From Dictyostelium discoideum (taxonomy: Eukaryota): DNA of 64,000 bases. Positions 4,338 to 14,379 of the stretch are shown piece by piece. Position 1 is the first letter of the stretch, and each line of letters opens with the position of its first letter. Location of the stretch: assembly GCA_000004695.1 (NCBI GenBank), contig CM000151.3:6496001-6560000 (forward strand), given 5' to 3'. The position numbers and the translations under genes were made by a program. Below the pieces are notes generated by a model. The model did not search any database. It was not told where the DNA came from and saw only the letters and a list, made by a program, of their open reading frames with translations.

Positions 4338-8666
<4,329 letters not shown>

Positions 8667-8887
8667 AAAAAAAATAAAAAAAACAAAAAAAAAAAAAAAA
8701 AAAATATAAAAAAACAAATAAAAATATTATTGGAATCAATTTTTTAAAAAAAAAAAAAATCATTAAAATTGTTTAATTGACTATTTAAAATAGTTTTTAT
8801 ATGATTTATTAAGATGTACAAATTTTTTTTTATATAATTTAAAAGGTTTCCAAGTTTCCAAGTTTCCAGGTTTTTTTTTTTTTTTTT

Positions 8888-9577
8888 TTACATTAATTTA
8901 TAAGTTTTAACTTCACATCCATATGCAGTTGGTAATAATGAAATTACAGTGTTTAATGGTATATTAATATATGGGAATTTTTCAATTGGTTCACCTGTGA
9001 TATAGCCATATAAGCATCTTAATGGTGCTGGATGACTAACTATTAGTGATGTGTTTTTAGCTGTATGTGATGAAGATAGTAAAAAAAAAAAAAGAATTAG
9101 TAATTTTATTTTTTATTTTTTTTTTATTTTTTTTTTTTTCTATCTAAAATAACAAATAACATACTTCTCTCTAATTCTAGAATTACAGATTCTAATCTTT
9201 GAATTACATCTAAATAACATTCTCCTCTTGGTATTCTATAGCCTAATTTATCATCACTATGAGCACCAAATTCTTCTGGCATCTTTTTTAAGATATCCTC
9301 TCTTTTTAAACCTTGCCATTCTCCACGATCTAAATCATCCAATGCTTTTACATGAATTTTTGGATGTGGTATATATTGTGCCGTTCTAATTGATCTCTTA
9401 AATGTTGATGTCCAAACTGTAACTTCTTCATTTTGTGAATTTTCATCAACCCATGATGCTAATCTATGTGAAAAATTCTCACCTTCTGCTGTTAATTCTG
9501 AATCACCACCTTTTCTATAAAATGTTTTTTTTTTTTTTTGAATAACAAAATAAAATACAATATAAGTATATATTTTA

Positions 9578-9637
<60 letters not shown>

Positions 9638-11143
9638 TTGATATTGTATTTTTTTTATTTCTTTTTTTTAAATATATATATATACAAACCTTCCTAAAAC
9701 TTCCCATTCAGATTCACCAGATCTACATAATAAAATTGGACGTGGTGTTAAATGTAAATTCATTAATAAAAACATAATTCTACTTGGTAAATAACCTGTA
9801 ATATTATTGGCTATAATCTTTTTACCAACATCAAATAATTTAATAAATTGAAGTTGATCAGATTTATCAATGCTAACATATTCCTTTTCATAATATGATA
9901 ATCTTTCTCTAAAATGATTGACTGCTTCTGCTTGACTATGATGTTCATAATCTGGTGATGATTTCCAATTTTCAATCATATTTGTTTCAATTTTTTCTAA
10001 AAAAAATAAATAAATTAATTTAGATTAGTATTTTTGTATATATATATATATATATATTATTGGTTATTTTGATTTATTAAAAACAAAAAAAAAAGAATAC
10101 AAACTTTTATCAGTCATAAAAGATTCAACGAAAATTACTTTTTCAATACCTTCTCTTGCGCATCTTGATAAAATTAATTGTCTTCTTTCAGTTGTTAAAT
10201 TTGTAGCATCGAAAATACCAGCTTGAGCGCCAGAATTTAACCAAGCCATCATATCATCAATTGCAGCGACCGCCATATGTAATCTAACCCTAGATGCATC
10301 TATATTACCAGGATCAAAGAATTCAGCTGGTTGTTTTGCACCTAATCTTAATCTTCTATAATCTCCAACAGTGAATACCTTTGCTGGTACACCCATCCAA
10401 TTTAATAAATTTCTAACTTTTCTACTAATATATGTTTTACCTGATGCTGGTAATCCAACCATTACCACAACAATCTTATCAGATTCAAATCCTGTATAAA
10501 CATATTGTCTTTTTTTACCTTCTGTAATCACTATAAATTTAATAATAAATAATTAGTATGAATATATATATATATATAAACTATTACTATTATTATTATT
10601 TAATTATTTATTATTATTTATTATTTATTATTAATTATTTATTATTATTATTATTTGAAATAAATTTTATAATGATACTATACAATCAGAAGAACCTTTT
10701 CTCATCTCTAGAGTACAACCTGGATATAAATCGCTAATTTCATCCAATTCGTATAATGTTTTAGTTTGTCTATGTTTAATAATGAATGGTGTTAATGTAT
10801 CTTTATTATATTCTGGGAAAAGTGTTAGGAATAAGTCGTTCAAATCCTCTAAAGTTTTCCCATTAAATGATGTGGCTCTCATTTTACCACGAACTTTAAA
10901 GAAAATAATAAGACTGTTTTCATCTTTATGTTGTTGATGTTCTAAATTATATTATTGTGATGAAGTGATAGTGTTATTAGTGTTGTGTGTGTGTGTTTTT
11001 TTTTTTTTTTTGTAGTATGCGTGATTTTTATAAAAAGTTAGTTAAAAAAAAAAAAAAGATTTGTATAATTTATAATTATTTTATAAATATATATATAATA
11101 TAATTATAGTAATATTATAGTATTATTTACCATTACTTGTCAT
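8888..11143 (-). CDS. 6-phosphofructo-2-kinase/fructose-2,6-bisphosphatase (PFKFB-like) with an extra N-terminal ubiquitin-like (beta-grasp) exon; 6 exons
   Basis: Minus-strand exons are 11143..11131 (ATGACAAGTAATG then GTAAAT), 10941..10684, 10530..10105, 9996..9690, 9514..9165 and 9060..8888. Phases are consistent throughout (1,1,1,2,1). The kinase has P-loop VVVMVGLPASGKTYISRKV and DATNLTTERRQL. The exon 3/4 junction rebuilds VESFMTDKKKIETNMIENWKSSPDY, aligning with human [27 protein letters not shown]. The bisphosphatase has LCRSGESEWEVLGR|KGGDSELTAEG (RHG motif equivalent) and the C-terminus ...LPTAYGCEVKTYKLM*. The frame shown for 10531 in the track begins at GTG, which is really the acceptor TTTATAG|TG. 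Confidence 0.8.
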
Positions 11144-11375: not shown

Positions 11376-11717
11376 TTATTAATTTCAAACCAATAATAGT
11401 CTTTTAAAAATTTTATAAATAAAATAAGGATTATGACGTTGCGTTTAAAATTTTTATTAATCTCAATAACAATCTAATAAAAAAAATATTAATTATTTCT
11501 TAACCCTAAAAATTTATTCAATTTATAAAAAAAAAAAAAAAAAATCTTTATTTAACATTCGAATAATAAAAAAAAGAAAAACACACACACAAATAATTTT
11601 AAGATTTAAATTATAATTCCCTTAACAATTTTTTTTTTTTTTAAATCTTTTATCTCTTAATTTTATTTTTTGTAAATATTTAGTAATACTTTTATTTAAT
11701 ATATTTTTTTTTTCTTT

Positions 11718-11775: not shown

Positions 11776-14379
11776 TTATTTTTTTTTATTTTTTGATGAA
11801 GACTTTGAGTTGAATATATCATCAATTTCATCATGTTTATCATTTGATTTTTTAGATTTCTTTTTTGGTTTTTCATCATCAGTATTTTGATCTTGTTCTT
11901 CATCTTGGTCAACTTTTTCAATTTCTTGTTTTTTATTTGATTTTTTATTATTTGTTGAGGTAGCAGTAGTAGTAGTATCTTTTTCATTTTCATTATCATT
12001 TAAAAGGTCAGAGAATAATTTTCTCTTTTTATCTTTTGAAGTGACATCATTAGCCCAACTATCTTTCTTTTTCTTATATTTATTAATTTGACAAATCATT
12101 AAAACGTAACGACCACATGGACGGGCGAATAAACGTTCTTCCTCTTTCATCAACTCTACAGCAATGACATCTTTTTGTTTAAAATCTGCAATTTTATACA
12201 TTTTTTCAATGGAATAACTACCATAACGATCTTCACCTATTGTAACGAAATTACCATTGAATTTAGTGATTAATTGATTCTTCTTTGGCAATGGTACATT
12301 TTGACTATCCAAAAATCCATCCAATACTTTACTACCGATAACATTGGTAGCCAATGAGAGTAAATATTCGATATCCAAAGAGAGGAAACTTTCAATGGTA
12401 GTTTTATTGTAGTCATTTGGGAATTTAAATAACAATTGAAGTATGACAGCACCACAAGCAGAATACATTTGATTATGAGATACATTACCCTCCAAACCCA
12501 ATAAATATTTAGCAATCTCTTTTTGATCAGTTTTATAATTTGGTAAGAGTGCTTCATTCAAATGTTTAATAATCTCTTTTTCATAGGCTGACCATTTCAA
12601 TGATTGTTCAATTAATTTCTGTACTATTAAACCTCTACCCATTTTAAATAGTTGTTTAAATGAATCCTTAAACTCTTGAATTAAAGTTAAGAAATGACCT
12701 TCACAATGGCAATGATCAATCAATTGTTGAACGACATGATTTGCATAGAAATCCTCTGAAAGATCCAATAGATCATGTTTACACAATTGAATCAACTCTA
12801 AAAAGATAACTTCTGGTGCTGTCTTTACAATGATTTCACAAAATACTGATCCAAATTGATTCTTCATTGCTTTAATAAGTTGTTTCTTTGAGAATTCTTC
12901 ATTGGACATCTTTATAAATGCTTCTAACCATGAACGATAAATTTCAATTGGTGCATTTGATAACACTTGAAATATTGATTTAATCGTTTCAATTGGTTCC
13001 TTTTGTGTTGAATATTTAACCATATTTGATTTAATTGGATCTTTAATTTTCTCTAATATCTCTTTTAATTTATCTGTAAATTCTTTTGATACTGGATATT
13101 CATTTGATTCTGGTTTCTCTTGTTGACGTTCCAATTCTAACATTCTTTCTTTATATGGTTTCTTTTTACCACCACCTTGACCATTACCTTGACCATTACC
13201 TTGACCTGGTTGATCTCCACCATTTGGTAATTTCTTTTCTTTTACTGTACCTGATAAAATTAAAATTATTGATGAGAAAACATAACTTGCATATCTATCA
13301 GTTACTGTCTTTAAAATATCCTTTAATAATAAATCACATAAATTAAAGAGAATCTCATTGAATTTATTCAATGTTTCTTTATCTGATCTATTTACAATCT
13401 TTGGTGTTGATCTTAATAAACCTTCAATAACTCTTGATCCATTTGCATCATTAATCAACTTTTCAAATTCTTTACCAAATGATTCAAAAAATTTAACAAT
13501 AACTTTTGGATCTTTACATTTTTGAAACATTGATTCTAATACTAAACTTGTCTTTTTATCACATGCTACTAAACTTTCTTTACCTTCAATTTCTTTATAT
13601 GCATTTTCAATCATAATTTCAATTTCTAAAAAAAATAAAAATAAAAATTAGTATTTAAAATAATAATAATTAATAATTTATTGTATTTTATAATAATTTT
13701 TACCTTCTTGATCAACAGCTTCTTCTTGTTTATTAATTAATGATTCAATTCTTGTGAAATAAGATCTTGTATCTAAATCTAATTGTGGAGCTGATGGATT
13801 AGTTGCATCCTCAACTACAAATTCTTCATCTTCTTGTTTATTTGGTCTTCTGTTATTTTCACTGTTTCTATCACCATTTCTATCATTGAATCTTCCACCT
13901 CTACCTCCACCTCTACCACCACCTCTTCCACCACTACCATTTCTATCACCATATCTACTATCACCATTTCTACTATCACCATTTCTATCACCATATCTGC
14001 CACCACCATTGTTATAATCCCTACCACCATTATCTCTATCATTATATCTACCACTTCCACCACTATTTCTACTACCAACTTTATCTATATAAAATCCACC
14101 ACCATTTGATTGATCATTGTTGTAATCTCTATTATTATTCCAACTTTTTTTATAGTTTCCGTCATCACCTCCTTCATTATTCCAACTCTTTTTATAGTTT
14201 CCACCATCACCTCCTTGATTATTCCAACTTTTTTTATAGTTTCCACCATCACCTCCTTCATTATTCCAACTTTTTTTATATCCACCACCGTAACCGCCAT
14301 CACCTCCTTCATTATTCCAACTTTTTTTATATCCACCACCATAACCACCTTCATAATTTGATTTTTTATTATATGACAT
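11776..14379 (-). CDS. Nop9-like nucleolar Pumilio-repeat RNA-binding protein with an N-terminal GGY/RGG low-complexity region; 2 exons
   Basis: Exon 1 is 14379..13704, from the ATG at 14379 to the donor GTAAAA in phase 1. Exon 2 is 13625..11776, after the acceptor TTTTTTTTAG. The junction reads ...EEAVDQE|EIEIMIENAYK. Pumilio-type repeats are visible (GSRVIEGLL, NHVVQQLIDHC, GSKVLDGFL). The Nop9-type tail is ARPCGRYVLMICQINKYKKKKDSWAND followed by a K/D/E-rich C-terminus. Exon 1 encodes (GGYGGGYKKSWNNEGGDGG)n repeats and an RGG box. Confidence 0.7.

Follow-up and report, generated by a model that had tools for sequence, protein, structure and literature searches.

What does a ubiquitin-like domain do at the head of an enzyme that regulates glycolysis? 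The question is raised by a locus of Dictyostelium discoideum that lies within a stretch of 64,000 nucleotides (nt; assembly GCA_000004695.1, contig CM000151.3, positions 6,496,001 to 6,560,000), hereafter the window, to which all coordinates refer. On its minus strand, from 11143 to 8888, a preliminary description had proposed a bifunctional enzyme of the PFKFB type with an N-terminal beta-grasp module joined through a 13-nt first exon. PFKFB enzymes control the amount of fructose-2,6-bisphosphate, which in eukaryotes is a major signal in balancing glycolysis against gluconeogenesis, and they are connected to regulation through N-termini that are specific to each clade. The rebuilt model of the locus comprises six exons that splice to a 1527-nt coding sequence for 508 amino acids followed by TAA. 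An exact-sequence look-up identified this product, with every residue identical, as the D. discoideum AX4 protein XP_643342.1 (EAL69426.1, DDB_G0276253, UniProt Q551Y6), which carries the database name 'hypothetical protein / 6-phosphofructo-2-kinase domain-containing protein'. The locus is the gene DDB_G0276253, one of two dictyostelid PFKFB paralogues, and its gene model is already in the databases and thus not new.

From the N- to the C-terminus, DDB_G0276253 includes a low-confidence tail of 11-14 residues, a beta-grasp of about 70 residues, a low-confidence linker of about 20 residues, a complete kinase domain, and a histidine-phosphatase-type domain. The explanation favored in this study, with a probability of about 0.85, is that the locus encodes a kinase-only or kinase-biased enzyme in which a head domain of the Bud6 type, most likely an interaction module, precedes a kinase domain and a degenerate phosphatase domain.

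The N-terminal module and its relatives

The module was compared with known families at the level of both sequence and predicted structure. Against the Pfam family AIP3 (PF03915), DDB_G0276253 scored 13.5-17.2 bits (E value of 0.003), below the cut-off of 31.6, and aligned to positions 14-72 of 406; a score above the gathering cut-off across most of the 406 positions, as would mark a member of the AIP3/Bud6 family, was not obtained. Among the modules of 20 amoebozoan PFKFBs, 19 matched PF03915 at approximately positions 1-75, with a best E value of 3e-15. An hhalign comparison between the PFKFB modules and the heads of Bud6 proteins returned a probability of 99.6% (E value of 9e-25) over 79 columns.

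An exhaustive search of 1.84 billion representative proteins with a hidden Markov model (HMM) of the module identified 369 proteins at E <= 1e-3. Ten long matches were scanned for domains, and all contained an AIP3 region, accompanied in eight by the Aip3p_Bud6_N domain. This region was covered from its start to (nearly) its end in nine, the tenth (P0154) being a truncated protein that retains the start only, and in all ten the module matched precisely where the AIP3 region begins. Ten shorter matches included five PFKFBs, three Bud6-type proteins, one RRM-repeat protein of 504 amino acids (P0151), and one Ion_trans channel of the voltage-gated type with 548 amino acids (P0217), the latter two with the beta-grasp head fused N-terminally. 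The presence of the head on an RRM protein and an ion channel shows that the module is mobile and has been shuffled among unrelated proteins. By a local HMM count, the 150 best matches comprised seven PFKFB-type proteins and at least 35 proteins that have an AIP3 body, and in most of the others the module was located at a truncated end. The animal relatives of Bud6/Aip3, SRCIN1/p140Cap and KIAA1217/SKT, are also annotated with the AIP3 domain. A profile search of the PDB sequences with the module gave a chance match only (E value of 1.6), and no solved structure covers the domain by sequence.

These profile comparisons indicate that the module is a distinct, mobile beta-grasp domain within the first ~75 positions of PF03915. 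The homology to the Bud6/Aip3 family is confined to these positions, as the rest of the AIP3 region and the Aip3p_Bud6_N domain are absent from DDB_G0276253; judged by domain content, the PFKFB shares only the head domain of Bud6/Aip3 and not membership in the AIP3/Bud6 family.

In the protein of D. discoideum, the module occupies residues 15-84 (10703-10912, minus strand). Its structural model was confident and of beta-grasp topology, with strands at residues 15-21, 24-30, 57-60, 67-69, and 81-84 and a helix at residues 35-45, and it gave strong structural matches to ubiquitin-like domains. The preliminary reading of a beta-grasp domain in the second exon is thus borne out by the predicted structure, whereas its label as PB1-like or CIDE-N is not. 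Although the module fits the beta-beta-alpha-beta-beta-(alpha)-beta topology of the PB1 fold, its structural resemblance to PB1 was no better than that to ubiquitin, and ubiquitin, ISG15, and FAT10 scored equally well. A CIDE-N structure was absent from the 60 structural matches listed for the module. The Pfam PB1 family had no match in this protein at E <= 10 and none at E <= 1 in the 20 orthologous modules, and neither CIDE-N nor DCX matched in Pfam scans of the modules of the 20 amoebozoan PFKFBs. Membership of the PB1 and CIDE-N families was ruled out by these scans, and the modelled fold is that of a generic ubiquitin-like beta-grasp.

Conserved motifs of the module included a basic VKK in the hairpin between the first two strands and an acidic YELD/E-D/E..D. 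The confidence of the prediction, expressed as the predicted local distance difference test (pLDDT), was ~94 when the module was modelled alone and 65-86 in the full-length model. Residues 86-106 of the linker had a pLDDT below 50 in the full-length model and were followed by a well-predicted catalytic body, which suggests that the module is a folded domain attached through a flexible linker.

The fusion was found in both dictyostelid paralogues, with representatives from Dictyostelium species, Polysphondylium violaceum, Acytostelium, Cavenderia, Heterostelium, and Tieghemostelium. Beyond the dictyostelids, it was present in annotated proteins of Acanthamoeba castellanii and Balamuthia mandrillaris, and as continuous open reading frames (ORFs) in the transcript assemblies of Physarum polycephalum, Clastostelium recurvatum, and Luapelamoeba hula, which places both parts on one mRNA in several species. 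This distribution points to an old fusion of module and PFKFB that is spread across the Amoebozoa. The fusion is therefore not specific to Dictyostelium, and the gene model is not new, the exact protein being already annotated.

The sole apparent exception was a 425-amino-acid model of Tieghemostelium lacteum (P0006), the annotated start of which is the Met of 'EMRK'. In the underlying sequence (LODT01000051.1; L002, about 1290-1500), the beta-grasp is encoded in frame directly upstream of that start (…YFFKVRGKIKTVTFRGTTLEEL…), and the frame between the beta-grasp and the likely start MSTHVSPSTLSTNENGVLKQDMII is broken by a run of T that has 6 bases instead of the required 7. The short model is, on these grounds, an artefact, due either to truncation in the annotation or to an error in the assembly.

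Outside the Amoebozoa, solved animal PFKFBs aligned only from residue ~107 onwards, outside the N-terminal module, in keeping with the earlier statement that animal PFKFBs lack it. The next-best relatives of the catalytic body (P0024-P0120) were mostly unnamed, metagenome-derived proteins of about 393-459 amino acids with 44-53% identity. All members with a taxon name belonged to Polyangiaceae/Polyangium or to 'Deltaproteobacteria' of the myxobacterial type. The Polyangiaceae relatives matched 76-81% of the query only, and the N-terminal module was found in none of P0024-P0120. These relatives may reflect a gene transfer between eukaryotes and myxobacteria, or merely the composition of the database.

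The catalytic body and its phosphatase residues

DDB_G0276253 belongs to the PFKFB family on the strength of its domains. The Pfam family 6PF2K (PF01591) matched residues 99-317 with 230.9 bits (cut-off of 27), covering profile positions 3-223 of 223, and His_Phos_1 (PF00300) matched residues 320-505 with 114 bits (cut-off of 21.7). An alignment to human PFKFB3 extended over residues 108-505 (E value of 6e-104). The Walker A motif in exon 3 reads GLPASGKT (residues 116-123), where the PFKFB motif is GLPARGKT; its G, K, and T are kept, and the replacement of Arg by Ser was restricted in the alignment to the clade of dictyostelid paralogue A.

The phosphatase-type domain is altered at two of its catalytic positions. 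The position of the phospho-acceptor His is occupied by Ser325 (codon TCT, 9721-9719), with RSGES in place of the RHGEN of PFKFB3, and hence the RHGE motif expected of a bisphosphatase is replaced by R324-S325-G-E. The position of the catalytic Glu is Asp395, with ALDDLDRG where PFKFB3 has ALNEIDAG. The second phosphatase His, that of the HQA motif, was retained as H461 (SHPA). In an alignment of 19 sequences, Ser or Ala at the phospho-acceptor position together with Asp at the position of the catalytic Glu was observed only in the paralogue-A clade (P0121, P0001-P0005). Paralogue B and nine other, non-dictyostelid PFKFBs in the same alignment keep RHG and DEID, the His being present in all 13 amoebozoan PFKFBs outside paralogue A.

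The mechanism of histidine phosphatases needs the phospho-acceptor His. In the monofunctional 6-phosphofructo-2-kinase (PFK-2) of the yeast Pfk26 type, this His is replaced by Ser, and bisphosphatase activity is reportedly restored when the His is restored. Based on Ser325 and Asp395, this mechanism, and the yeast precedent, DDB_G0276253 is predicted to be a kinase-only enzyme. Its bisphosphatase is probably inactive, and the term 'bifunctional' in the preliminary description is accordingly doubtful.

Compared with the animal enzymes PFKFB1-4 (e.g., human PFKFB3, PDB 2AXN/6IBZ), DDB_G0276253 has the same two-domain catalytic body and shares the Walker A pattern GxxxxGKT and the second phosphatase His (H461). 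In contrast, the solved animal enzymes are without a beta-grasp, and they have RHGEx and NEID where DDB_G0276253 has RSGES and DDLD. What yeast Pfk26 and DDB_G0276253 share is the replacement of His by Ser at the RHG motif, with the phosphatase-type fold otherwise intact. The loss is independent, however, and confined to the paralogue-A clade of dictyostelids, and yeast PFKFBs were stated in the preliminary description to have no beta-grasp head.

Exons, first exon, and surroundings of the gene

The exon coordinates and splice phases proposed in the preliminary description gave the annotated protein residue for residue. All five introns are of the GT...AG type, with lengths of 104-189 nt and a G+C content of 6-15%, and the exons have a G+C content of 26-33%. 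Exon 1 (11131-11143) consists of ATGACAAGTAATG, which encodes M-T-S-N and the first base of codon 5, and is followed by the donor GTAAAT of intron 1 (10942-11130; 189 nt, 15% G+C). Exon 2 (10684-10941; 258 nt) encodes residues 5-91, which include a short N-terminal tail, the entire beta-grasp module, and the start of the linker. After intron 2 (10531-10683; 153 nt, 6% G+C, donor GTATAG), exon 3 (10105-10530) encodes the remaining flexible linker, which extends to residue 106 at 10484, together with an initial portion of the 6-phosphofructo-2-kinase domain. Exon 4 (9690-9996) completes the kinase domain and opens the histidine-phosphatase-type domain, with Ser325. Exon 5 (9165-9514) holds the middle of the latter domain with D395, and exon 6 (8888-9060) its end, with His461 in SHPAP and the stop codon TAA at 8890-8888.

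The tiny first exon is required by the reading frame, because exon 2 cannot supply the start of its own conserved sequence. In the frame of exon 2, a TAA is found at 10954-10952, immediately before the acceptor, and from there on no start codon of any kind occurs in frame ahead of that of M25 at 10882. Residues 14-24 (SLIIFFKVRGK), which form the first strand and the hairpin, lie upstream of M25 and are among the most conserved in all orthologues. From the upstream gene to exon 2, the minus strand contains only three ATGs, at 11558, 11143, and 11133. The latter two lie next to the GTAAAT donor, and the one at 11143 alone joins exon 2 in frame; the ATG at 11133, when spliced at this donor, is out of frame with exon 2 and was rejected for its early stop. 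The ATG at 11558 opens an ORF of 11 codons when read unspliced.

The counterpart in D. firmibasis, ATGACAACAAGTAATG|GTAAATA, has the same mini-exon and donor with an in-frame insertion of 3 nt, while the A+T-rich intron and promoter DNA around it is barely alignable between the two species. In exon 2, 21 of the 258 nt differ from D. firmibasis, and the 19 codons affected comprise 14 synonymous and five non-synonymous changes. The 13-nt first exon and the 5' part of the gene were thus confirmed as real by four independent arguments, namely the frame, the choice of ATG, the conservation in D. firmibasis, and selection. Members of a Logan cluster (P0128, P0129) were discarded as transcript evidence, as these ORFs had been called in the bacterial manner on genomic DNA and extend into introns.

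The donor of intron 2 had been named as the weakest point of the preliminary model. With GTATAG at 10683, the protein reads ...EMRKGSSD-L-ITEGKKRQYVYTG..., and the orthologues read ...EMRKNTSD-S-ISEGKKRQFVYTG..., so that the spacing RK(G/N)(S/T)SD-x-I(T/S)EGKKRQ is reproduced exactly. The alternative donor GTTCTT shifts the frame into a stop. Both the orthologue spacing and the identity with the annotated protein support GTATAG as the correct donor. A comparison with other dictyostelid PFKFB orthologues, which had been suggested earlier, found the module and the donor spacing present.

A different reading of this 5' region takes the upstream ORF as a separate small gene or a mis-joined exon, with the real enzyme starting within the exon that begins at 10530. 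The T. lacteum orthologue annotated without the module would fit this reading, although that model is accounted for as a truncation artefact. Exon 3 offers no in-frame ATG ahead of the kinase domain, save via GTG, and exon 2 cannot stand alone given that the conserved first strand lies upstream of its only ATG. Together with the presence of the fusion in transcript-derived ORFs of three other amoebozoans, these observations make a separate gene highly improbable.

Within the linker just upstream of the kinase domain (residues 94-106, 10484-10522), a basic motif varied among the amoebozoan sequences. It was KKRS in dictyostelid paralogue B and RKRS in P0007 of the Physarum group, and the equivalent positions read RKRG in Clastostelium (P0008), RKRL in P0009 (a cluster that includes a transcript-derived protein of Physarum polycephalum), and KKRQ in DDB_G0276253. 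The KKRS/RKRS motif may be a regulatory phosphorylation site that was lost in paralogue A.

The neighboring genes were a convergent one on the plus strand (4338-8666), encoding a 1442-amino-acid ethanolamine-phosphate transferase of the PIGO/PIGG type for glycosylphosphatidylinositol with very long poly-Asn tracts, and one on the minus strand (11776-13614), encoding a NOP9-like PUF-repeat protein of 612 amino acids. Genes were called at the same flanking positions and orientations at the D. firmibasis locus. The short spacer between DDB_G0276253 and the end of the convergent gene at 8666 contains, just 3' of the stop codon (8845-8887, minus strand), a run of about 19 A followed by CCTGGAAACTTGGAAACTTGGAAACC, which is three copies of an 8-nt unit. 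Additionally, intron 4 consists for the most part of a long (TAA)n/(ATA)n microsatellite (9555-9660), and intron 2 is built similarly of (AATAAT)n-like repeats.

Proposed role of the tethered module

In the explanation favored here, the beta-grasp has been fused to PFKFB enzymes since early in the Amoebozoa, and the enzyme would make fructose-2,6-bisphosphate with its kinase as the only or the prevailing activity. The tethered domain would act as a protein-protein interaction module that binds a partner, possibly of the same kind as that of the Bud6-type heads, or pairs with itself, and this binding or pairing would set where or how actively the kinase works. Its role is most likely one of interaction or regulation, controlling the place or the activity of the kinase, as suggested by the beta-grasp fold, the occurrence on unrelated proteins, the conserved VKK and acidic motifs, and the regulatory PFKFB N-termini elsewhere. 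A parallel would be found in the N-terminal extensions of other PFKFBs, which are regulatory in other lineages. Among PFKFBs with extensions particular to a lineage, plant F2KP has a long N-terminal region, and a trypanosomatid PFK-2/FBPase-2 reportedly carries ankyrin repeats. In these enzymes, too, the catalytic body is conserved and an accessory region of the clade's own is added at the N-terminus, whereas the accessory module of DDB_G0276253 is of the Bud6 type of beta-grasp, unlike the plant and trypanosomatid extensions.

Several points weigh against this explanation. The loss of bisphosphatase activity is read from residues, and the Arg-to-Ser replacement in the Walker A motif (GLPASGKT) might also affect the kinase. 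The junction between 11131 and 10941 relies on the comparison of species, on the reading frame, and on the current annotation. The search found no experiment or structure that shows what the Bud6-type head does in any protein (Bud6, p140Cap, SKT). A KIAA1217 fragment spanning the AIP3 domain (amino acids 1-269) was merely cytoplasmic, and the Bud6 constructs with which formin and actin binding were characterized begin at residue 478. In fungal Bud6 proteins of similar length, matches to the module HMM placed the heads at about residues 307-409, and by analogy these constructs probably begin downstream of the head. Lastly, the full-length predicted structure lacks inter-domain confidence, so that docking of the module within the molecule cannot be judged from it. 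A literature search found no work on DDB_G0276253 or on a Bud6-type or beta-grasp head on a PFKFB, although most subscription journals lay outside the search and an earlier description is possible.

The module could also be an intramolecular regulator that binds to the kinase domain or the degenerate phosphatase domain within its own dimer and adjusts kinase activity with no external partner. This would resemble mammalian PFKFB isoforms, in which an N-terminal segment sets the ratio of kinase to phosphatase. The module is placed where other PFKFBs have regulatory N-termini, and the basophilic KKRS (paralogue B) or RKRS (P0007) of the linker recalls regulatory phosphorylation sites. The module was predicted with lower confidence in the full-length model than in isolation, and the difference shows no confident packing for or against such docking. 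On the other hand, the occurrence of the domain on Bud6 scaffolds, an RRM protein, and an ion channel is more readily explained by a general interaction module than by a surface that co-evolved with PFKFB, and the linker is predicted to be disordered; a regulator of this kind is possible, if doubtful. An assembly role is unlikely, in which the module would serve as a PB1-like or ULD-like self-association domain that builds higher oligomers of PFKFB dimers or stabilizes the dimer. The basic VKK and acidic YELD/E-D/E..D patches would mediate such contacts; the module has no detectable sequence relationship with PB1 domains or with the ubiquitin-like dimerisation domain (ULD) of protein kinase D. 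A bolder extension of the interaction role holds that Bud6/Aip3, p140Cap, and SKT, as scaffolds of polarity and the cytoskeleton, have in common a Bud6-type beta-grasp that binds partners or assembles head to tail like PB1, and that in the Amoebozoa this domain brings a kinase-only PFK-2 to the cortical or cytoskeletal sites of such scaffolds. This proposal appears improbable. If true, fructose-2,6-bisphosphate would be made locally, and carbohydrate flux would be coupled to cell polarity or motility.

The immediate value of the finding is moderate, as the gene was already known and the role of the module is a proposed one. For the PFKFB family, it places a folded domain shared with Bud6/Aip3-type scaffolds on all sampled amoebozoan members, and it indicates that one dictyostelid paralogue is probably phosphatase-dead. 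For the AIP3 family, the head is re-delineated as an independent, mobile beta-grasp domain. The domain fusion is testable in a genetically tractable organism, and its amoebozoan form could give the first functional clue to the head of the Bud6, p140Cap, and SKT proteins.

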